64,000 nt of DNA from Bacillota bacterium (GCA_015059155.1 SVAX01000003.1:28473-92472), one strand, 5' to 3'; positions 51,269-62,786 are shown, counted from the first letter of the stretch. The notes: generated by a model not told the origin, from the sequence alone. Program-made: numbers and translations.

Positions 51269-51733
51269 CTACAATTCTATGATTGCTTGAGAAATTGGAT
51301 TATATAATTCTACAAGTTGTCCATCAATTATATAAGAAAGCATAGATTGAGCTGTCCTATCACCTCTATAACATTGAATCGTTTTCCATTTCTTATCAAA
51401 AGGGTTTAAAAACTCTACTTCTATTGGAGAAGGTCTTTTTCTTATCTCAGTAAAAAAGTCTACAAGTTCATCTTCTGTTAATGGTCTTGTTACCAAATCT
51501 AATCTATATTTTGTATTAATAACATTTAAAATCATATCACCATTAGCATTTGTAACATCTCTACCACTATTTTTAGATACATCATACTCACTAATGGAAC
51601 TTTGATTTGATAAATATTTAGTTATATCAACTCCATTTAATTTAACTTTAGTTAACTTTAAAGATGGTCCAGATAATACATATCTATAACCATTATTTAC
51701 AAATTCTTTTATCATGATTTCACCATCTTTCAT
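51269..51733 (-). CDS. phage distal tail protein-like (start may be the ATG at 51715)
   Basis: Position directly after the tape measure gene. Shorter than a typical Dit. Confidence 0.45.
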   Translation of the reverse strand: MKDGEIMIKEFVNNGYRYVLSGPSLKLTKVKLNGVDITKYLSNQSSISEYDVSKNSGRDVTNANGDMILNVINTKYRLDLVTRPLTEDELVDFFTEIRKRPSPIEVEFLNPFDKKWKTIQCYRGDRTAQSMLSYIIDGQLVELYNPISQAIIEL

Positions 51734-51749
51734 TTTCCCTTATGAAAGA

Positions 51750-51758
51750 AGTGCTACT
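51750..51758 (-). promoter_or_regulatory. AGTAGCACT motif copy (upstream of the Dit-like gene)
   Basis: Minus strand TAA-AGTAGCACT-TCTTTCATAAGGGAAAATG. The following UUCUUUC can pair with GGGAAAA (SD region). Confidence 0.5.
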
Positions 51759-54700
51759 TTAATATGGTATATTTATTGGACAAACACCAGTTTGTCTAGT
51801 AGTTTGATTTATTCTATCTACAACTACGCCTTCATCTGAGTGAACGTGAACATCTATTTGATTTGTATGATTAGCATATTGAGCCATTACTTGACTCATA
51901 CCTTGCATTACAGCTTGCTTTATACCTTCTGTTATTTGCATATTGTTAGCAACCACACTTTTACCATTATCAAATTTTCCCATTATTTCACCATGATTAG
52001 CTCTAAACCAACCATCTTCTGGGAATCCACCATTTGCATAAGCATTTATTTTTATATATCCATATTTATCTTCTTTTTTTCCAGATGTTATATCTGTAGA
52101 AATTTCTTGTTTTATCTGAATCTTTTTATTCATAGCTGAAATGAAACTATTTTGCCAAGCTGTTCCAGCTACTTTTCCTGAATATTTAAAATTTTCTTCA
52201 TCTATATCTACATTTATGTTTAATGCATCAATTCCTTTTTGAAGTTCCTCAGAAATTGAGTAACCTTTAGCATACATTTTATCTACTATTTCTTCTTGGA
52301 TATCTTGTGGTAACAATTTAAATTTATTCATAAATTCTTCTTCACTATTTTGAGCAAGTTTTCCCCAAGCATCAACCATATCAGAATTTATATCTTTTAC
52401 TTCTTTTACTAATAATGTTAAATTAATTTGATTTAACATAAGTAAATTTTCATATCTTAATTTTTCTCTTTGATACTCTTCAGCATTATAATTTGATTTA
52501 TTTTTTTCTAGTTCATCTAAATTATCTTTTTGCAAGTTGATTTCATCCATATAATATCTTTTCTTTTCTTGATTAGATGCATAATATAGTTCTTCTTCTT
52601 TTTCTATATATTCAATTAAATCATCCAAATTATTATCTAAAGATAACTCATATGCTGTTGTATATGTTTCTATAGCTTTTTGATTTTTATAATATATTTC
52701 TCTTTGCTTTTCAAGTTTTTCGTTTGCCTCATCCAACTCTTGACCAGCATAATATAAAGCTCCCATAGCATCCGCTGTTGCTCCAGAAAAATCTCCTAAA
52801 GAAGAAATTGCACTAGCCAATCCACTTTTTGATAAATTCTTTAATTCCTTTTCAGTTTTTCCTGTTACTTTTATAGCTTCTTTTAATGCATTATTATATT
52901 TTTCTTGTTTTTGTTTTTGAGTTTCAACTGCTTTATTATAAGTATTAGTAACTTCAGTTTTTGTTTTGATTGCATTAGTATATTCTTCCTCATATGTTTC
53001 TAATAATATCTGTGCTTTTTTTTGTGTTATTACATCTTTAATTGATTGTTCTAAATCTTTATATTTTTGAACTTGACCATTAACAATATCGATTTCAATT
53101 CCCAGTGCATTGCTAAGCGTTGTTGTTATAAATTTTGCTCTATCTTCATAACCTGTTTTAATTTTTCCATTTGCATCAACAATTCTTGTTAATTCTTCAT
53201 ACAAATCTTCATAATATGAAAATTCACTATTTGATTCACTAATTATTTTTCGCCTTGTTTCTTCAAGTTGTTTATATTGTTCTGACATAGTTTCTATTGA
53301 ATTGTATAAGTTTTGAGTTTCTTTATCAATTGTTCCAGATGCTCCAACAATAGCTGTAACAAAACTACTTAATAAACCTATTGCTCCACCTATCGCTGTT
53401 CCAAGAGGTCCAAAAATTGAACCTATAGTGGCAAAACCACCTATTGTAGATAAAGAACCCATTATTCCTTCTAATACATTTGTTACATTTGGTCCCTCAC
53501 TAGCTATATCTTTCATAGCATCATGTACCATATATAAACCAGATACACTCATTCCTATACCCATTAAAGCAGTTTTTGCTTTGTTTATGTTTGTATGCCA
53601 TTTATTAACACTTCCATCAGCATTTAAAACAACATTCTTATGTTTTTCTAATGTTTTATTATATTCTTTCAAATTACCATTAGAATCTAAAATATAATTA
53701 TTAGTACCTTTTAATTGTTTGCCAAAAGTTTGAATTAAATTAGCTCCTGTTTTAATTTTAGTTGTAAATGTTTTCCAAACATTAATTAATGGAGTTAATA
53801 TCGTTTTTACGGTTTTAAATAATAAAAATGTTTCTAATAATTTTGCTAAGATAGTTTGTGCTTTTTTATTAGAAGCTATATATTTAAATAAATCTCTTAA
53901 TTTTTCAAATATAGTTACTAAAACTTTCCCAAATGCTCCACTATCAAAATCTCTTTTTAAAACTTCAAAAACACCTTTAATAGCATCTTTTCCATATATT
54001 ACAATATCTTTTAAAGCATATAATAATTTGCCCATAGTTGAATTAGTATTATCTAATTTCCAACTTACTTTTCCTGTTAGAGGATCGATTTCTTTTATAA
54101 ATCCTAACCAACCCATCATTTTTTCATATATTTCAGTGGCTTTCATTTTTACTTTATCCATACCATTGTCATACCCATAAATAGCATCTAACAATCTTTG
54201 GTCTATACCACCATTTAAGGAATAATCATTATTTTTATCTTTGTTTTCGTTTATATTATTTATTTGGTCAAATCCTAATGTTTGTCTTTTTAATTCTTTT
54301 ACACTATCTGTAGCATCAGATATAGAATCATCTAAATCTACAAAAGCATCTTCTGAACTTGCTATACCAGAGTTAAAATCTGATAATTCAATTCCTAATA
54401 AGTTTGCTAAGACATTACATATTTCTCTAACTACTAATAAGAAAGCATTTGCATAAGGTAAAACTTTAGAAAAAGTACCCATAAATAAACTTGTTAATGC
54501 TACTTTGGCTTCAACTAATAAATTAGAAAATATTTTCATTTGATTAGATGGAGATTCTATTGTGTCAGCATAATCTCCCATAGCTACTTTAGCTTGTTTT
54601 AATGCCGCTAAATATCTTAATATTTCTTTTTCTCCTTGAGATAAATCTTTTACACTTCTATCATTAATACCTAAACTTTCAAGTAAAGGTTGCATTGTTG

Positions 54701-55448
54701 ATTGAGTAACATCTATACCATATGCTCTTAATGGTTTTGTTTGACCAGCATATACACCAGCTCTTAGTGCCTCAGCAACATCACTTTCCTTTTTGTTGTA
54801 TAAGGATGCTAAGTCATAAGTAAACTTAGTCATAGTTTCAGACATTACACTTGCATACTCTTTAGGTATACTTGCATTTTCTCCCATTGATTGAAATAAT
54901 GCTTGATATTTTAAGGTGTCAGTTAAATTAGTTCCAAAAGCATAATTTAATTTGTTTTGAAATTGTATTGCCTCTTTACCTAATTTAGAAAATGTTTTGA
55001 CACCATTTTTTTCCATATTATCAAATACAACATTAAATAAGTTTAATTGTTCAGTTCTATCAGTTGCTTCAGTCATCCAAGTTAAAAATGTTGTCGCTAA
55101 TTTTCTAACTCCATAAAATAATCCAGTTAATGATATTGCTGAAGTTAATTTAGAAAACATTTTTGAAGTATTATTAGTTGCATCTCCAAGTTTTCTCATA
55201 TTAAAAGTTGTATTTTGTAATGTCCCATCTTTTCCAATTCTATATAAAGTTGTATATACTTTTTGACCTTTTTTATTTACAGATGTTAAAGTTTTATTTA
55301 CTAAATTACCATTAGCATCTACTTTTGTAGAGATTTTTTGAATACTCGATCCAGTTAAATTTAGTGTACTTAGTAATTTATTAAAACCACTTACAGCTTC
55401 TTCTGCACTTGATTTTAATTTAACCTCTAAAGACTGACTTTCATTCAT
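51759..55448 (-). CDS. phage tail tape measure protein
   Basis: 1229 aa, with coiled-coil and G/A-rich TM-like segments, downstream of the chaperone pair. Confidence 0.9.
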   Translation of the reverse strand: MNESQSLEVKLKSSAEEAVSGFNKLLSTLNLTGSSIQKISTKVDANGNLVNKTLTSVNKKGQKVYTTLYRIGKDGTLQNTTFNMRKLGDATNNTSKMFSKLTSAISLTGLFYGVRKLATTFLTWMTEATDRTEQLNLFNVVFDNMEKNGVKTFSKLGKEAIQFQNKLNYAFGTNLTDTLKYQALFQSMGENASIPKEYASVMSETMTKFTYDLASLYNKKESDVAEALRAGVYAGQTKPLRAYGIDVTQSTMQPLLESLGINDRSVKDLSQGEKEILRYLAALKQAKVAMGDYADTIESPSNQMKIFSNLLVEAKVALTSLFMGTFSKVLPYANAFLLVVREICNVLANLLGIELSDFNSGIASSEDAFVDLDDSISDATDSVKELKRQTLGFDQINNINENKDKNNDYSLNGGIDQRLLDAIYGYDNGMDKVKMKATEIYEKMMGWLGFIKEIDPLTGKVSWKLDNTNSTMGKLLYALKDIVIYGKDAIKGVFEVLKRDFDSGAFGKVLVTIFEKLRDLFKYIASNKKAQTILAKLLETFLLFKTVKTILTPLINVWKTFTTKIKTGANLIQTFGKQLKGTNNYILDSNGNLKEYNKTLEKHKNVVLNADGSVNKWHTNINKAKTALMGIGMSVSGLYMVHDAMKDIASEGPNVTNVLEGIMGSLSTIGGFATIGSIFGPLGTAIGGAIGLLSSFVTAIVGASGTIDKETQNLYNSIETMSEQYKQLEETRRKIISESNSEFSYYEDLYEELTRIVDANGKIKTGYEDRAKFITTTLSNALGIEIDIVNGQVQKYKDLEQSIKDVITQKKAQILLETYEEEYTNAIKTKTEVTNTYNKAVETQKQKQEKYNNALKEAIKVTGKTEKELKNLSKSGLASAISSLGDFSGATADAMGALYYAGQELDEANEKLEKQREIYYKNQKAIETYTTAYELSLDNNLDDLIEYIEKEEELYYASNQEKKRYYMDEINLQKDNLDELEKNKSNYNAEEYQREKLRYENLLMLNQINLTLLVKEVKDINSDMVDAWGKLAQNSEEEFMNKFKLLPQDIQEEIVDKMYAKGYSISEELQKGIDALNINVDIDEENFKYSGKVAGTAWQNSFISAMNKKIQIKQEISTDITSGKKEDKYGYIKINAYANGGFPEDGWFRANHGEIMGKFDNGKSVVANNMQITEGIKQAVMQGMSQVMAQYANHTNQIDVHVHSDEGVVVDRINQTTRQTGVCPINIPY

Positions 55449-55468
55449 ATTTTACTCACCACCTTTTA

Positions 55469-55828
55469 TTAGTTTTTGGTAGTGCTACTTTTATCTTTGC
55501 CCTTTATTGCCTGAACTTGTAAAACTCTATTTTTAATTTTTATAGCTAACAAGTCCTGTTCTTTTTTATTTACATCTACATTTTCTTCACCTATCAAACC
55601 ATAAGGTTTTTTTGAATATTCTATTTTTTGTTTATTAAAACAATTATTAATTGCAACTTGCATGGCTTCACAAATATATGCTCCTTGCAACCAGGAATTA
55701 TAATTATTTATTTCTTGCATTGATTTTATTCTTTCAAAAAAAGAAAAACGGTATGCCCAGAACAAGTCAGGGCTATCCTCCCAAAACTCTTTCACAGACA
55801 TACCGTATGTAATTGCCATAGGCAACAA
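55469..55828 (-). CDS. tail assembly chaperone, T-like part (-1 frame relative to 55882..56214)
   Basis: Position between the chaperone and the tape measure. Its frame stays open upstream across the stop of the preceding ORF. Confidence 0.55.
   Translation of the reverse strand: MLPMAITYGMSVKEFWEDSPDLFWAYRFSFFERIKSMQEINNYNSWLQGAYICEAMQVAINNCFNKQKIEYSKKPYGLIGEENVDVNKKEQDLLAIKIKNRVLQVQAIKGKDKSSTTKN
55481..55489 (-). promoter_or_regulatory. AGTAGCACT motif copy (upstream of the tape measure gene)
   Basis: Minus strand AAAGTAGCACTACCAAAAACTAATAAAAGGTGGTGAG. CACUACC pairs with GGUGGUG (SD). Confidence 0.5.
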
Positions 55829-55881
55829 ATCATAAAACCAATCTGTTAAGTTTTTAAATTTTTTGCCTTCTTGATTTTCAC

Positions 55882-56214
55882 TTAAATTTCTATTATTTCT
55901 AGTGTTTCGTTCATCTTCGATTCTGTATCGGCTAGGGCATTCATAAAAGCTGAATATTCTTCTATAGCAAATTTAATGACATTTGCAACACTATGTTCTT
56001 TTTCATAACTTTCCAATAATTTAATTGCTAAATTAGGATTTACATCACTATGATTTTTAATAAACAAGCTAGTCCATAATAAATCATAATAAGTTAGTGG
56101 TTTATTTTCAAAATCTACTATAGAAAACCCATTTGACTCTAACCACTTAATAGAGTTTCTATTCATCTCTAAATTATAAGTTTTATCATTTATTTTTAAT
56201 TTTAATTGTTTCAT
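55882..56214 (-). CDS. phage tail assembly chaperone (G-like)
   Basis: Position after the major tail gene. Start trimmed to MKQLKLKIND. Confidence 0.65.
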   Translation of the reverse strand: MKQLKLKINDKTYNLEMNRNSIKWLESNGFSIVDFENKPLTYYDLLWTSLFIKNHSDVNPNLAIKLLESYEKEHSVANVIKFAIEEYSAFMNALADTESKMNETLEIIEI

Positions 56215-56235
56215 CGTTTTTCCCTCTTTCATTTA

Positions 56236-56682
56236 TTAATTAGTTGCTATTTTAGTTGAAACTTCACTTGAAGTTAAATATGTTGGAGCAACACTTGGAA
56301 CTGTATGTAAAGTACATTCTATTGCACTACCAACAGATACTTCATTAATCCAAGTTTGTAATGTTCCTTTATATTCAACACCAGTTCCATCAGGTAACTT
56401 AATTAAAATATCTTTTGTTGAATTATCACAAACTTCTTGAACATTTGATAAATTAGATTCTGTATAGTTATATGTGAAATCCATATCTCCAGTATCAGGT
56501 CTATCTGCTACATATACTTTAGTCGGATCACTAGATGTTGTTATTTCAACTGTTCCACCAGCTTGTCCTGTTGCAGGCATACCTTTAACAGCAACTAAAA
56601 TCGCTTTTGAATAAGTTTGTTCAGTTGTTTCTTTAACTCTTAATTCAATTCCTAAATCAATATATCCATTCATTTTATTCAC
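56236..56682 (-). CDS. phage major tail protein
   Basis: 148 aa, immediately upstream of the chaperone pair, with a strong GAGAGGTG SD. Confidence 0.7.
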   Translation of the reverse strand: MNKMNGYIDLGIELRVKETTEQTYSKAILVAVKGMPATGQAGGTVEITTSSDPTKVYVADRPDTGDMDFTYNYTESNLSNVQEVCDNSTKDILIKLPDGTGVEYKGTLQTWINEVSVGSAIECTLHTVPSVAPTYLTSSEVSTKIATN

Positions 56683-56709
56683 CTCTCATTGTAATTCCCT
56701 TACAATTTG

Positions 56710-56718
56710 AGTGCTACT
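56710..56718 (-). promoter_or_regulatory. AGTAGCACT motif copy (upstream of the major tail gene; contains the upstream TAG stop)
   Basis: Minus strand ATAGTAGCACTCAAATTGTAAGGGAATTACAATGAGAGGTG. CAC/UCA/UUGUAA pair with UUACAA/UGA/GUG, reaching into the SD. Confidence 0.5.
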
Positions 56719-57169
56719 ATAAAGGATAAATAACTAATTTATCAATTCCATATTTTGTATCTAATTTACCACTAATTCTCACATAGTTTCTATGTATGTC
56801 AGAATCTATATTTGGCATATCATATTCTACTTTTATAGATACCTTATAATTATTCTTAAAATATTCAATTACTTTATTTGTAACTTCATCACAAACTGTT
56901 TTTTTTGATATTTTTAAATTATTAGTATATTTATCTTGAGTATATATATTTATTTCTATTCCGAAAGTATAAGTTTCTTCTCCATAAGATAAATTATTAT
57001 ATTTATTTTCTATAGGTAATAATTTAACTGGTACTATAGGAAAAACTTTACTTTCTTGTGTTTGTTTTTTTGTAACTTTTGGACTATATATTGAATTACT
57101 TTCAACATACTCTTTTAAACTAGTATATATATGATTATTAAATATATTTTCTACTAACATACTTATCAC
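56717..57169 (-). CDS. phage tail completion/terminator-like protein
   Basis: Position only. Confidence 0.4.
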   Translation of the reverse strand: MISMLVENIFNNHIYTSLKEYVESNSIYSPKVTKKQTQESKVFPIVPVKLLPIENKYNNLSYGEETYTFGIEINIYTQDKYTNNLKISKKTVCDEVTNKVIEYFKNNYKVSIKVEYDMPNIDSDIHRNYVRISGKLDTKYGIDKLVIYPL

Positions 57170-57714
57170 CCACTTAATGAATTTATAAAACTTTGATATT
57201 GTTCATCGTTAATAGCACACTCTGTTGCTATAGAATAAAACTCTTTCATTTTTTCTTTTAACATAACTTCAAGGTCATAAAACATATGCTTTGCTTTCAT
57301 ACCATAAGTACTAACATAGCTTTCAATATCTTCATTATAATAAACCCATCTTCCATTTTTATCTTTATAAGATGTTTGAATATTATATTGATAGTTTTGT
57401 GAGTTAGGATGAGTTCCTGATCCTACAATACCAGTTCCATATTCATTAAATATAACAACCCAATCATTAGTCCAAATTCTAAATCCATAACCATTATCTG
57501 TTATTTCTTTGTTTAAGTTTTTTATATGATTTGATAAATTAGTTCTTTTAAATATTTCAATCATCAGATTATAACTTAAGTTCATTAAATCATAAGTAGC
57601 TAATTTAATGTTTTTTTGAAATCTATTCTTTATCTTCTGAAGTTGGATTGTTGCTTCCTGTATGCTTTTTTGGGATAGATTTACTATTATTTGTTTCATT
57701 AGGCTTTTCCTCAA
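57166..57714 (-). CDS. HK97 gp10-like head-tail joining protein
   Basis: Size, position and N-terminal pattern. The start is uncertain because of the overlap with 57623..57817. Confidence 0.45.
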   Translation of the reverse strand: MRKSLMKQIIVNLSQKSIQEATIQLQKIKNRFQKNIKLATYDLMNLSYNLMIEIFKRTNLSNHIKNLNKEITDNGYGFRIWTNDWVVIFNEYGTGIVGSGTHPNSQNYQYNIQTSYKDKNGRWVYYNEDIESYVSTYGMKAKHMFYDLEVMLKEKMKEFYSIATECAINDEQYQSFINSLSG

Positions 57715-57817
57715 TAGTTTTCTTAGCTTTACTTGTTACTAATTTATAACCACATTTTATATATTTTTCTTTGGTTTCTTTATCATATACAACTATTCCA
57801 TTCGTAAATTTATACAT
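57623..57817 (-). CDS. small phage protein (64 aa), overlaps the next gene by 92 nt
   Basis: ORF track only. Confidence 0.3.
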   Translation of the reverse strand: MYKFTNGIVVYDKETKEKYIKCGYKLVTSKAKKTIEEKPNETNNSKSIPKKHTGSNNPTSEDKE

Positions 57818-57824
57818 AAAGCAC

Positions 57825-58202
57825 CTACTTTCCTTCTATTTTTTCTAAATAAATAACAATCACAGAATTGCCATTTCTAGGTGGCAATAATCTATAATTT
57901 GCATTTTCTCCATTAACTATTTCTTCCTTTGGAGATACACCATCTAAATAAGCTACATCAAATTCTTTAAACATATTTATGTATGCTATCGGAATTACCA
58001 TTTTTTTCATTATGCTACATTTTTCACCAAACTCTACTATTTCGGAATATGAATTAACTGGTTGATAATTAAATTCATAATATGTTGGTTTATCATAAAT
58101 AACTATTTCATTATCTTCATCATCAACTTCAACTTTTAACTTTTTAGATATATATATTTTTTTATTCCAATCCATAGGATTAGCTTTAATATCTAAAATC
58201 AT
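57825..58202 (-). CDS. phage head closure/head-tail adaptor protein
   Basis: Position after the gp6-like connector. Confidence 0.45.
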   Translation of the reverse strand: MILDIKANPMDWNKKIYISKKLKVEVDDEDNEIVIYDKPTYYEFNYQPVNSYSEIVEFGEKCSIMKKMVIPIAYINMFKEFDVAYLDGVSPKEEIVNGENANYRLLPPRNGNSVIVIYLEKIEGK

Positions 58203-58534
58203 TTAGGAACTCCAGCTTTAGGAATTAACTCATTCATTAAACTAGTTGAAATTAATCCAGTTAAGAAAGTTACTGATAAACCATTTTCACTATAGGATTG
58301 TACATTTGTAGTACCAATTTTTCTATATAATTCTATAGCACAACGAGTTTGCCAATTTTTTAATCTAAAATTGTTAGGCAATTCTTTAATTTCTAAATTA
58401 TAAGGATAAAGTGTATTTAGAGCCACAACTTCTGCATTCTTTAACATAATGATAAAAATGTCATCTTTAGAATTATCAAATATATTACCTAATATTTCTA
58501 ATTGCATTATTTTTAGTTGTTCTTCTTGACTCAT
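58199..58534 (-). CDS. phage gp6-like head-tail connector protein
   Basis: 111 aa, first gene after the capsid gene, with a typical helical pattern. Confidence 0.55.
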   Translation of the reverse strand: MSQEEQLKIMQLEILGNIFDNSKDDIFIIMLKNAEVVALNTLYPYNLEIKELPNNFRLKNWQTRCAIELYRKIGTTNVQSYSENGLSVTFLTGLISTSLMNELIPKAGVPK

Positions 58535-58558
58535 AAATACACTTCCTATCTAATAAAA

Positions 58559-59572
58559 CTACCCTGATACTTCTTCAGTTACAGTTACAATTTTTTGACC
58601 TGTTGGAGCAACAAATTCAGTAGATAAATTTGTGATTTTTCCATGATACCATTCTGGTCCGTGGTCTAATCCAATTTGCCCAAATAATTGATACTTAGTT
58701 CCAGCGCCTTGTTTAGCTAATTCTTCTAAGAAGAAATTTCCTTTTCCAGGTGTTGGTTGTTCAACTGGTCCTACAACAGATGGATTTATAACTAATGCTG
58801 TTCCTTCAGGAATAAATTCACCTAATCCTAATCTAACAGTTGTTCCAACTGGTAAAATTAAATCTCTTACTTGAATACCATAAGAAGTCATATATTCTTT
58901 TCCTACAGGCATTCCTAATTCAATAGCATTACCATGTAATTGTAATAAGTTTACAGAGTTTAATAAGATAATTAAGTTATCTATTTCTCCTCCAGCATTA
59001 CTTATTAATGAAACTACATCATTAACTAACCATAAGTCTAATTTAGAACCATTTGCATCTTTTGTATTTGTAGAAATAGCTTCTACCATACCTCTTGTTT
59101 TATTAACTTCTGTATCTGAAGTTGCTTTATTATATTTTCCTTGAATAAATGTTTTTTCAATACTTCTTTTTAATTTTTCCATTTTTCTTGCAACTTGAAA
59201 ATCTAATTCATTTTGTGGATTAGCACTTTGTCCAGCTAAATTAACTCCACTTAATGTTGCCATATTTGATTGTTTAGCATAACTAATTGCTACAGCATCC
59301 ATAAAGATTTGAGTAACATTTGATAATTGATTTCTTGTTACAAATGATGCTGATGGAGCAGTTAATGATGCTGTTTCACTAATTTCAGGAATTTCACCTT
59401 CTTCACTAGAGAAATATTGTCCTGTAACAAATTCAACTGAATTAGTATATTTTACATTTCCACTAATCATGTTTAAAAATGGAGTTTTTGTATTTGCTTT
59501 GTTATATAACAACCCTGAATAGTTAGGGCAATTAAAAGATTGTACAGTTTCTGTTCCGTTCATTGTTTTCAC
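58559..59572 (-). CDS. phage major capsid protein
   Basis: 337 aa, following the scaffold gene. Confidence 0.8.
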   Translation of the reverse strand: MKTMNGTETVQSFNCPNYSGLLYNKANTKTPFLNMISGNVKYTNSVEFVTGQYFSSEEGEIPEISETASLTAPSASFVTRNQLSNVTQIFMDAVAISYAKQSNMATLSGVNLAGQSANPQNELDFQVARKMEKLKRSIEKTFIQGKYNKATSDTEVNKTRGMVEAISTNTKDANGSKLDLWLVNDVVSLISNAGGEIDNLIILLNSVNLLQLHGNAIELGMPVGKEYMTSYGIQVRDLILPVGTTVRLGLGEFIPEGTALVINPSVVGPVEQPTPGKGNFFLEELAKQGAGTKYQLFGQIGLDHGPEWYHGKITNLSTEFVAPTGQKIVTVTEEVSG

Positions 59573-59604
59573 CTCGTATAAAATTTTCTATCCCTTTTTT
59601 TACG

Positions 59605-59613
59605 AGTGCTACT
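59605..59613 (-). promoter_or_regulatory. AGTAGCACT motif copy (upstream of the major capsid gene)
   Basis: Minus strand TAAATAAAGTAGCACTCGTAAAAAAAGGGATAGAAAATTTTATACGAGGTG. CAC-UCGUA pairs with UACGA-G-GUG (SD). Confidence 0.5.
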
Positions 59614-60374: not shown

Positions 60375-60451
60375 TGGTCTGGTATAAAGGATTTGAACCT
60401 CTAATTACTACATCCCAAATGTAGAGCCTTACCAACTTTGGCCAATACCAG
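60375..60451 (-). tRNA. phage-encoded tRNA-Pro (TGG), CCA encoded
   Basis: Folded by eye: CTGGTAT/ATACCAG acceptor, anticodon loop TTTGGGA, T-loop TTCAAAT. Confidence 0.7.
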
Positions 60452-60452
60452 A

Positions 60453-60526
60453 TGGAGAGCCATGTCAGAATTGAACTGACACCAATAGATTGGAAGTCTA
60501 CTATTCTACCTTTAAACTAATGACTC
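60453..60526 (-). tRNA. phage-encoded tRNA-Gly (TCC), CCA encoded
   Basis: GAGTCAT/ATGGCTC acceptor, anticodon loop CTTCCAA, T-loop TTCAATT. Confidence 0.7.
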
Positions 60527-60527
60527 A

Positions 60528-60602
60528 TGGCAAATCGACTAGGACTTGAACCCAGATAAACGGTTTTGGAGACCGACATGTTACCAATTACATCATCGAC
60601 TT
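60528..60602 (-). tRNA. phage-encoded tRNA-Trp (CCA), CCA end encoded
   Basis: AAGTCGA/TCGATTT acceptor (one G-U), anticodon loop CTCCAAA, T-loop TTCAAGT. Confidence 0.65.
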
Positions 60603-62133: not shown

Positions 62134-62159
62134 TATTTCACCACTTTTCTATTTGGAAG

Positions 62160-62265
62160 TTCCCAAATAAGAAAATAAGGGAACACAACTATAAATAAAT
62201 TTACGGTTATGCTCCCGCGTAGCACTTCGAGTAACCAATGAAGGGAAAAACTTGATTACTCGTGT
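62160..62265 (-). other. GC-rich structured non-coding element upstream of the portal gene
   Basis: Minus-strand helices CGAGUAA...UUACUCG, GUGCU-ACGCGGG-AGCAU and GUUCCC...GGGAAC. Contains AGUGCUAC, the complement of the AGTAGCACT motif core. Confidence 0.35.
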
Positions 62266-62283
62266 ATATTTATATAATAAATA

Positions 62284-62309
62284 TAAAAAAAAAGACATCT
62301 ATGATGTCT
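62284..62309 (-). terminator. intrinsic terminator after the membrane moron
   Basis: AGACATC-ATA-GATGTCT plus U9 on the minus strand. Confidence 0.75.
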
Positions 62310-62366: not shown

Positions 62367-62786
62367 TTATTTTTTCTTTTTATTTTTTATTAACAAAATA
62401 CCAATTACTATAAGTATTATTGATGGTATTAAAAACTCAACACTTCTAACTATTACATTTAAATAAAATGGTGCTGAATTCATATAGCTATGTAAATAAT
62501 CAACATCTAATACAACTAAATATAATAATACCAATAGTAATGCTACAAACAATAAAACTAATCCTATAATTTTTTTTATTTCTAACTTTTCTTTTTTTAT
62601 CACTCTTTTAACAATGTAAGTTATAGAAATTGCTAAGTATTCCAATATAGCAAAAATTGATATTAAATATAATGATGTTAATAATGTCGGTAAGCTACCA
62701 AAATGATAAATACTAAATATCTCTGCAAATATAAATGTTAAAACTAATGTAATAATAGTTAATATTATAATCGTTCCCTTTTTCAT
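62367..62786 (-). CDS. polytopic small membrane protein (moron between terminase and portal)
   Basis: 139 aa with about 4 TM segments, its own TGaTATAAT promoter, GGAGG SD and terminator. Confidence 0.65.
   Translation of the reverse strand: MKKGTIIILTIITLVLTFIFAEIFSIYHFGSLPTLLTSLYLISIFAILEYLAISITYIVKRVIKKEKLEIKKIIGLVLLFVALLLVLLYLVVLDVDYLHSYMNSAPFYLNVIVRSVEFLIPSIILIVIGILLIKNKKKK

Follow-up and report, generated by a model that had tools for sequence, protein, structure and literature searches.

Late-gene control in tailed phages is usually described at the level of transcription, where activators, sigma factors or antiterminators act, and the C4 RNA of P1/P7, the CI RNA of P4 and the CB RNA of N15, which are matured by RNase P, control immunity and early genes through translation block or termination. 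RNAs can also activate translation by an anti-antisense mechanism, as exemplified by RNAIII on hla, DsrA and RprA on rpoS, the C. perfringens VR-RNA on colA and synthetic toehold switches; the natural cases that we know of involve one or few unrelated targets. To our knowledge, the lambda 6S RNA has no known targets, and we know of no described precedent for a phage-encoded RNA regulon of the kind considered below. Firmicute small RNAs (sRNAs) that end in a 3' terminator and combine a 5' hairpin with an unpaired UCCC motif pair with Shine-Dalgarno (SD) regions (PMC2790875), and RNAIII and RsaA are reported to repress translation and recruit RNase III through an imperfect duplex plus a loop-loop contact (PMC2837412, PMC3961350).

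The locus under study is the late operon of a prophage within a 64-kb stretch of DNA, the whole of which is called the window. An earlier note on this DNA had proposed that a recurrent 9-mer is a shared post-transcriptional signal, perhaps recognised by some phage or host factor. The signal itself holds up, as the motif forms part of hairpins that sequester the SD in the late mRNA and is kept in related phages, whereas the nature of the factor has to be refined: the best candidate that the sequence offers is a structured RNA encoded by the phage 2.5 kb upstream, rather than a protein or nuclease.

Results

The sequence AGTAGCACT has exactly four matches in the window (51750-51758, 55481-55489, 56710-56718 and 59605-59613), all on the minus strand as first noted, and shuffling puts the chance expectation at 0.31, with at least four copies in 0 of 100 shuffles. 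Just outside, 628 nt past the end of the window and 5' of the large terminase (TerL) gene, a fifth copy shows the same anatomy (contig C15:93100-93108, minus strand); the prophage holds five copies in a single orientation versus ~0.2 expected. A sixth, inverted copy (CGTAGCACT, 62218-62226, plus strand) lies within the portal leader. The rest of the 1.0-Mb genome contains eight further copies, all within coding sequence, in mixed orientation and lacking hairpin or SD, a distribution that rules out a Chi-like, restriction-modification or uptake site. Each of the four window sites sits in an intergenic spacer with a start codon just 3', and the sites occupy each sizeable intergenic gap from scaffold to Dit plus the position 5' of TerL. 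From the motif end to the start codon we measured 32-41 nt (16-32 nt had been given before), and the upstream stop codon falls 0-6 nt 5' of the motif or overlaps it at four of the five sites and lies in the loop at the fifth.

The CACU of the motif forms, at each site, the 5' base of a stem, and the SD (GGUG or AGUG) lies in the 3' arm of the hairpin; folding bore out this proposed sequestration at all four window sites. The hairpins have energies of -6.8 to -13 kcal/mol (z-scores -1.8 to -4.4) and stems of 7-12 bp that vary from site to site around a common CAC...GUG closure, with AAGGGAA in most loops. 5' of the major capsid gene (ATG at 59563; PHROG major head protein) the motif AGUAGCACU (59605-59613, minus strand, as are all sites) leads into the hairpin CAC-UCGUA...UACGA-G-GUG (59570-59608), which has AAGGGAU in its loop and sequesters the SD GAGGUGA (59569-59575). 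The motif of the major tail gene (56710-56718; ATG at 56673) is overlapped at its first two bases by the upstream UAG stop and joined to the hairpin CACUCA..UUGUAA [GGGAA] UUACAA..UGAGAGGUG (56680-56713). That of the tape measure gene (55481-55489; ATG at 55448) lies inside the 3' end of the tail chaperone frameshift (T) frame, and its hairpin (CACUACC / GGUGGUG with one U.G pair, 55457-55484) has a loop without GGGA, which is present in relatives. Directly 3' of the tape measure stop UAA, the motif of the Dit-like gene (51750-51758; ATG at 51715) opens the hairpin CACUUCUUUCAU [AAGGGAAA] AUGAAAGAUGGUG (51721-51753; z -4.4); the stem there is CACUUCUUUCAU / AUGAAAGA-U-GGUG and not the UUCUUUC/GGGAAAA pairing described earlier, GGGAAAA being the loop. 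Major head, major tail and tape measure are PHROGs assignments, while the putative label 'Dit-like' follows from gene position alone. That the marked genes encode the most abundant virion proteins is not supported, because TerL, tape measure and Dit-like proteins are low-copy and the sites occur at every sizeable gap. The earlier suggestion of cleavage at the motif likewise finds no support here. Intrinsic terminators at the five sites are ruled out by the A-rich spacer and start codon that follow the hairpins in place of a U run, and T7-type RNase III processing sites, which are irregular hairpins of ~20 bp or longer, do not match stems of 7-12 bp.

In related uncultured gut phages, the five junctions that carry (GU)GUAGCACU with hairpin and SD are again those 5' of the TerL, major capsid, major tail, tape measure and Dit-like genes. 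Absence from these junctions had been named in the earlier note as grounds for abandoning the idea; since the relatives keep the motif there, those grounds fall away. Among 77 distinct sites from relatives, the sense strand is more stable than the antisense strand in 72, and 85 of 848 stem pairs are G.U and hence strand-specific. Conservation begins at -2 of the motif, and the internal variants are A>G or C>U only. Copies with the site anatomy were found, among viral contigs, in this phage group only.

The inverted copy is part of a predicted ~90-nt RNA element (62165-62262, minus strand) located 5' of the portal gene, with the terminase module on its other side. Just 5' of it, an intrinsic terminator (62293-62309) closes the upstream unit (TerL and a membrane-protein moron), and a -10-like TATAAAT (62268-62274), 5 nt 5' of the first hairpin, marks a putative promoter whose TGnTA is kept in relatives, T17 and A18 being invariant. 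The first hairpin, H1 (CGAGUAAUCAA / UUGGUUACUCG, 62228-62262), shows compensatory changes in seven of eight pairs and exposes a loop (GUUUUUCCCUUCA, 62239-62251) complementary to the AAGGGAA loops of the sites; UUCCCUU is conserved within it as an unpaired UCCC, with CCCC in relative L030. A single-stranded seed, AGUGCUAC (62219-62226), is the exact complement of GUAGCACU and is followed by a terminator-like hairpin, H2 (GGGAGCAUAAC...GUUGUGUUCCC, 62179-62216), with compensatory changes in L023, L030 and G119, and by the U-rich tail UUAUUUUCUUAUUU (62165-62178). Over 36 distinct leaders the energy of H2 averages -17 kcal/mol, and the first 10 nt 3' of it contain a mean of 6.6 U, the U tract being offset by 2-4 nt in some. 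Next to the tail, GGGAAC (62159-62164) can pair alternatively with the H2 3' arm GUUCCC and covaries with it in L023 and L029, possibly constituting a switch in read-through transcripts.

Covariation supports this architecture: 95% of cells in H1 and H2 are paired and ten pairs have changed on both sides, values that were matched in 0 of 500 shuffles, slid controls giving 40-50%. On average the seed is unpaired with a probability of 0.68, and GUGCUAC is invariant in ~40 distinct leaders bar one (GUGCUAU in L202/L203); covariance-model searches of 703 genomes and further prophage matches left the seed unchanged. A seed-agnostic scan with GGGAGCATAACCGTA yielded only chance matches beyond the known leaders, and no extra targets for the invariant GGGAGCAUAACCGUA block were found in the prophage. 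The leader is not a sixth site transcribed from the opposite strand, as mismatches that are G.U in the late sense become C.A there and the fold has a z of -2.9 in antisense versus -6.4 in sense. When the Rfam 15 covariance models were run on 42000-64000, only three tRNAs passed and the leader region gave nothing but noise (PYLIS_4, 23.9 bits against a threshold of 50). No cultured relative was found: neither megablast of the region nor blastn of the leader matched any of 50,697 phage records, the nearest cultured capsid being 36% identical, and literature matches to the sequence strings were primers and siRNAs only. Comprising ~40 distinct leaders, with 77 distinct sites as presumptive targets, the leader is, by comparative sequence criteria, a new and well-covarying RNA family.

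An inverted copy could be accommodated if the motif acted in DNA, as a late transcription factor site or an internal late promoter or start, since a double-stranded site is orientation-independent and the portal copy would simply be another binding site; A/T-rich -10-like hexamers also occur 5' of several sites. We consider such a role very improbable. Position-specific conservation is nil upstream of -3 in 76 sites and no conserved -10/-35 is present, which excludes a sigma-70-type or phage late promoter, the motif is always joined to a hairpin with strand-specific G.U pairs, and the leader complement belongs to the RNA stretch that links two covarying helices, the -10-like box lying ~45 nt upstream.

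The complementarity between leader and sites is twofold. Seed and motif match exactly, over 10 nt (GUGUAGCACU / AGUGCUACAC) in 30 of the 77 sites, and site-loop GGGA faces leader-loop UCCC, with a matched change to GGGG/CCCC in L030. The internal motif variants remain wobble-compatible with the seed, as does the sole seed variant (C>U in L202) with the motif; with a seed that hardly varies, compensation between seed and motif in the strict sense is not observable. The leader covariance model also matches capsid sites on the opposite strand, and a leader was found in all site-bearing relatives covering the region and is missing in the site-less L033-L088. RNAcofold placed the seed-motif duplex within the minimum-free-energy dimer at all five sites (ddG -4.3 to -8.6 kcal/mol) with GGUG free, and ranks one to four among the 25 translation-initiation regions of G196, an independent prophage, all go to sites (four of its five).

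We therefore favour, tentatively and at a little short of even chances, the reading that the phage uses the leader as a small RNA, akin in type to the UCCC-loop sRNAs of Firmicutes, which pairs with the five sites and activates their translation. What the sequences show directly are the sites, their RNA-level hairpins, the leader structure, the two complementarities and the co-occurrence of sites and leader; a discrete RNA, pairing in vivo and activation as its effect are what we infer. It would accumulate as a small RNA or stable leader and base-pair with all five sites, which would serve as translational operator hairpins of the late mRNA, the 9-mer being their conserved 5' flank and stem base. 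The seed would take the exposed GUAG as a toehold and then invade CACU, stripping it from the SD, so that the SD would be released and translation activated, and the C-rich loop of the leader could additionally kiss the AAGGGAA loop of the site.

Several observations, besides the near-invariance of the seed, count against this reading. Of the 56 translation-initiation regions of the window prophage, the top seven include no more than three of the five sites, and GGGA is absent from the loop at two of the five sites (tape measure and TerL). In an L024-like lineage several sites are reduced to AGCACU, leaving six complementary bases. One leader per transcript would have to serve four sites, unless the short RNA accumulates.

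Others speak for a rival in which the sites are autonomous cis elements. The hairpin would couple initiation to translation of the upstream gene or tune yield, and the single-stranded (GU)GUAG would be bound by a protein or endoribonuclease, for instance with an RNase Y-type cut upstream of the hairpin leaving an mRNA stabilised by its 5' hairpin; the complementarity to the portal leader would then have another role or be a relic of inverted duplication. The stop codon positions given above fit such coupling. The CACU part of the motif (positions 5-8) is accounted for by the hairpin alone, the invariant leader block of 25 nt exceeds what pairing needs, and the A at -1 common to all five window-phage sites mismatches the leader (CUACGC) of this lineage; these three points also weigh against the favoured reading. 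We nevertheless regard autonomous elements as unlikely, if well worth keeping in mind: they leave unexplained the strict co-occurrence with the leader, the invariance of a seed in an unpaired linker and the matched loops (GGGG/CCCC in L030), and the site anatomy is absent from host genes and, among viral contigs, confined to this phage group. Moreover, ten proteins, including eight whose genes lie just upstream of TerL, were searched with Pfam, and the only matches were DNA-binding domains of HTH and LexA type and a weak one to a gp3-like small terminase; neither a nuclease nor an RNA-binding, N-like or Com-like protein was among them. The ribosome itself was considered as a partner, as 16S rRNA contains GUGCUAC at ~1228-1234, and set aside because this segment is base-paired inside the 30S head; a 7-mer match in a 1.5-kb rRNA is in any case not significant.

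Pairing between leader and sites could also have the opposite outcome. Bipartite binding (duplex plus loop-loop kiss) would block the 30S subunit, or it would create an RNase III substrate at which the polycistronic late mRNA is cut into separately stable pieces. The complementarity evidence for repression or guided processing is identical to that for activation, imperfect duplexes with a loop-loop contact have a reported precedent in RNAIII and RsaA (PMC2837412, PMC3961350), and the H1 loop is complementary to 10 nt in the SD region of the tail-chaperone gene as well. Repression or processing nonetheless appears rather unlikely to us. The seed targets the SD-masking strand and not the SD, the predicted complexes free the SD, and the capsid and tail-tube genes need high output yet bear inhibitory hairpins, so that relief, not more repression, is called for.

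Discussion

Taken further, the favoured reading of the leader as an activating small RNA would mean that a temperate phage of uncultured gut Bacilli possesses a dedicated natural toehold-switch trigger, in which one 8-10 nt seed and a C-rich kissing loop open five different SD-masking hairpins and gate translation of TerL, capsid, tail tube, tape measure and Dit once late transcription has begun; we put this forward as a conjecture somewhat more likely to fail than to hold. If true, late-gene control would gain a post-transcriptional layer in the form of a phage-encoded RNA whose regulon comprises five genes for structure and packaging, and engineered toehold switches would have a natural counterpart with compact and portable parts (a 9-10 nt tag and any SD-terminated stem). 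The distribution of the RNA family is limited to the phages of a single family of gut Bacilli that have small genomes, no cultured representatives and no genetics.

Several described systems share part of this layout. As in the lambda nut sites (boxA and boxB), a linear conserved motif is directly followed by a hairpin; stems and loops at the sites are unlike the conserved boxB, however, and the sites stand 5' of start codons in the late operon rather than in early leaders. The layout also resembles that of Mu mom, where a factor (Com) bound 5' of an SD-masking hairpin activates translation. Much as in the lambda pR'-6S RNA-tR' unit with Q, a candidate promoter and a short structured transcript, closed by a terminator-like hairpin, lie just 5' of the late structural genes; neither a Q-like gene nor a qut element turned up here, and H2 is only a putative terminator. 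Like the P1 C4 and P4 CI RNAs, it is a structured RNA in an operon leader with several complementary, presumptive targets, four of the five lying downstream in the same operon and orientation and TerL upstream; here the element precedes the late structural operon, and the targets would be SD-masking hairpins.

Similar in form are the UCCC sRNAs (S. aureus RNAIII and RsaA/E/G/H, Listeria LhrC; PMC2790875, PMC2837412, PMC3961350, PMC4132741). H1 would likewise be a 5' hairpin and carries an unpaired UCCC in its conserved loop, H2 and the U-rich stretch that follows are a candidate 3' terminator, and bipartite contacts (linear duplex plus loop-loop) to G-rich, SD-like loops are predicted; the likeness is one of functional class only, with neither sequence similarity nor an Rfam match. 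It differs in being phage-encoded within the structural-gene region, with five genes of the same phage as predicted targets, and in a proposed main seed that is an 8-10 nt linker, predicted to pair with the anti-SD strand, instead of a C-rich loop. In this last respect it resembles anti-antisense activation, since here too the SD is hidden by an upstream mRNA strand and AGUGCUAC is predicted to pair with the masking strand and the adjoining unpaired toehold (GUAG plus CACU). What would set this phage apart is that a single trigger would open five different hairpins whose only common parts are the toehold and the stem's first four bases.

Hairpins masking the SD at five late junctions

The window (C15:28473-92472) contains exactly four copies of the 9-mer AGTAGCACT, each on the minus strand (at 51750, 55481, 56710 and 59605), and the earlier note's impression that this lies far above chance holds up, as dinucleotide-preserving shuffles predict 0.31 copies and 0/100 shuffles reach four. 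A fifth copy in the prophage is located 628 nt past the window end, directly 5' of the gene for the 582-aa large terminase (TerL), and the source genome (metagenome-assembled, 1.0-Mb, 25% G+C) has 13 in total, the 8 others being intragenic and devoid of the hairpin-SD anatomy. The downstream genes (TerL, major capsid, major tail, tape measure and Dit-like) differ from the "most abundant virion proteins" originally proposed as targets; PHROGs back the identities of the major head, major tail, tape measure, portal and TerL genes, and for the 148-aa protein encoded downstream of tape measure the name Dit-like comes from position only.

The sites are ordered (A/U)AGUAG, CACU, variable 5' arm, loop, 3' arm, (G/A)GUG, A, 4-7 nt and start codon. 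Each motif copy is joined to an SD-sequestering hairpin: CACU folds against the SD GGUG or AGUG (-6.8 to -13 kcal/mol; z-scores -1.8 to -4.4), the rest of the stem being unlike from site to site (UCGUA, UCA..UUGUAA, ACC, UCUUUCAU, UUAUC). Two details required correction: GGGAAAA at the Dit-like site, thought to pair with UUCUUUC, is the loop, and motif-to-start distances are 32-41 nt rather than 16-32 nt. The upstream stop codon lies 0-6 nt 5' of the motif or overlaps it, and at the tape measure site it is in the loop.

Conservation of the sites in relatives

A capsid protein query gathered 80 IMG/VR loci and 48 genome loci, the closer genome relatives, including all carriers of the system, being MAGs of uncultured gut Bacilli, 'Tenericutes' or Clostridia. 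As to whether related phages keep the motif at these junctions, system-carrying relatives with capsid identity of ~65% or more retain motif, hairpin and SD at the same five junctions in all cases. Other low-G+C relatives (L033-L040 and L204-L208; 63-67% capsid identity) have plain GGAGG SDs without the hairpin, as do all more distant relatives, and an IMG/VR pattern scan returned no true copies outside this phage group, all other matches being chance occurrences in coding sequence. The system is rare, with matches in 3/301 genomes sampled from the host family and 7/401 from the host order, all within the same family, and is confined to that one family. One relative (L340) carries two Dit-type sites ~4.9 kb apart (8762 and 13663 of its minus strand), and sites can therefore be duplicated or gained at new junctions.

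Among 77 distinct sites, the hairpin is stabler in mRNA sense than in antisense in 72, and 85/848 pairs are G.U. RNAalifold of 20 sites from all five junctions recovered CACU/GGUG plus the stem, with compensatory changes in 7/11 stem pairs. Information in a logo of 76 sites starts at -2 and reads R-U-G-U-A-G-C-A-C-U; since no -10 or -35 signal appears upstream in this logo, the sites are ruled out as promoters.

A predicted structured leader RNA before the portal gene

A 1-mismatch search revealed an inverted copy, CGTAGCACT, at 62218-62226 of the plus strand, within a block highly conserved in relatives. On the minus strand, this region comprises an intrinsic terminator closing the TerL/moron unit (62309-62293), a -10-like TATAAAT (62274-62268; relatives keep TGnTA), hairpin H1 with loop GUUUUUCCCUUCA (62262-62228), an unpaired linker with the seed AGUGCUAC (62226-62219), hairpin H2, GGGAGCAUAAC...GUUGUGUUCCC (62216-62179), and a U-rich tail (62178-62165), 31 nt after which the portal gene starts (62133). 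The leader folds at -49.3 kcal/mol in late sense (z -6.4) and -31.9 kcal/mol on the opposite strand (z -2.9), its stem mismatches being G.U where the opposite strand would have C.A. Pairing holds in 95% of cells across 19 distinct leaders, and both sides have changed at 10 pairs, values matched by 0/500 shuffles (slid controls, 40-50%); H2 shows compensatory changes in L023, L030 and an orphan copy in genome G119. Averages over 36 distinct leaders put H2 at -17.2 kcal/mol, with 6.6 U in the 10 nt that follow it, and the seed at an unpaired probability of 0.68; their predicted RNA spans 79-97 nt. This leader covariation, together with the sense-strand bias, G.U pairs and RNAalifold stems of the sites and the promoter-less logo, makes it unlikely that the motif acts as a DNA-level site.

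The orphan copy (G119:C103, L195, a 4.6-kb contig) is diverged, with the H2 changes GGGAAUAUAAC/GUUAUAUUCCC, an intact seed and no portal gene downstream. The H2 3' arm GUUCCC can instead pair with GGGAAC 14 nt downstream (62159-62184, minus strand), and covariation of this helix (GCUUCC/GGAAGC in L023, UUCCCCC/GGGGG in L029) suggests that read-through transcripts may adopt two conformations. Because the invariant leader block AGUGCUACRCGGGAGCAUAACCGUA exceeds the length that pairing needs and has no second complement in the prophage, the leader probably does something else as well, such as acting in H2 read-through into the portal operon, and the covarying alternative helix points the same way.

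Between TerL and the leader sits an insertion, the gene for a 139-aa multi-pass membrane protein with its own intrinsic terminator (62367-62786 and 62293-62309, minus strand); it is missing from relatives such as L016, which still have a terminator after TerL. Three head-to-tail tRNA genes (60378-60602, minus strand; Rfam tRNA, 55-65 bits) lie on the late strand between the portal and scaffold genes. Outside the window, opposite-strand genes at C15:95,500-101,600, including one for a serine-recombinase-like protein, lie between a weak gp3-like small-terminase gene (101618-102268) and the genes immediately 5' of TerL, and look like an insertion inside the prophage. The sister clade that lacks the motif system carries another conserved pre-portal element, GUGGAGGGAUUAC...CUAAUUCACUCCAU (L033:1465-2140, L034:7200-7680, L036:7210-7690, L204:7180-7650); in several of its genes a strong GGAGG is followed 7-9 nt later by AUA, AUU or UUA as the apparent start codon, and AUG, GUG and UUG are all absent from that range.

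Complementarity between leader and sites

GUAGCACU is the exact complement of the seed, and GUGUAGCACU, found in 30/77 sites, is a 10-nt complement to AGUGCUACAC, the leader form of most lineages. AAGGGAA site loops are likewise complementary to the H1 loop UUCCCUU, and L030 has GGGG in its sites and CCCC in its leader. Internal motif variants in the 77 sites are restricted to A3>G, C5>U, A6>G and C7>U, all still able to wobble-pair with the seed; at positions 1-2, changes do no more than shorten the helix from its end, and the sole seed variant, GUGCUAU in L202/L203 (C>U), is also wobble-compatible. A leader covariance model (R1) matches every site-bearing relative covering the region and 0 of the site-less L033-L088; it also weakly matches capsid sites on the opposite strand, the sites therefore being pseudo-reverse-complements of H1 plus seed.

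In RNAcofold, the MFE heterodimer contains the seed-motif duplex at 5/5 sites (ddG -4.3 to -8.6 kcal/mol), with GGUG unpaired. Genome G196 has an independent complete prophage, and there the best 4 of 25 translation-initiation regions are all among the five sites; in the window prophage, 3/5 rank within the top seven of 56, where purine-rich SDs able to pair with the C-rich loop compete. The top cofold score among all 56 belongs to the tail-chaperone SD region AGGGAAAAAC (about 56217-56228, minus strand), whose complementarity to the H1 loop spans 10 nt; it may be a sixth target, of another type.

Several points weaken the case for pairing. The near-invariance of the seed precludes a true compensatory seed-motif test, and the window's lineage has G in the leader where others carry A, and A at -1 in all five sites, a correlated rather than a compensatory change. 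Several sites in some lineages keep only AGCACU, and GGGA is missing from two of this phage's site loops. On a rival reading, each site would be a self-contained element for coupling or processing, recognised by a protein or RNase. We nonetheless consider leader-site pairing as such probable. The SD-unmasking post-transcriptional signal envisaged in the earlier note is supported in part: the shared signal in SD-masking hairpins stands, and the unmasking factor, instead of being a protein or nuclease, is likely an RNA of the phage.

Discussion

The most economical reading is a toehold-type anti-antisense activation of five genes at once. The leader would be made as a short stable RNA, through termination at H2 or by outlasting decay of the mRNA body, and would act on all five sites; its seed would bind the exposed GUAG and then invade CACU, freeing the SD, and a kissing contact through the C-rich loop may contribute. 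Activation as the outcome of pairing has somewhat less than even chances. The analysis shows the sites with their structure at the RNA level, the leader structure, the two complementarities and the joint occurrence of leader and sites; where the leader RNA ends, that it pairs in vivo and in which direction it acts are inferred. The same pairing could instead repress translation or guide RNase III, as the accounts of RNAIII-coa and RsaA-mgrA describe (PMC2837412, PMC3961350). The leader has no match in Rfam or in 50,697 phage records. It defines a new RNA family and, on the reading above, extends sRNA control by base pairing in a new way. Its predicted architecture is that described for Firmicute sRNAs, the Rsa RNAs and RNAIII among them, whose signature is a 5' hairpin, an unpaired C-rich motif, a single-stranded seed and a terminator-like 3' hairpin (PMC2790875).
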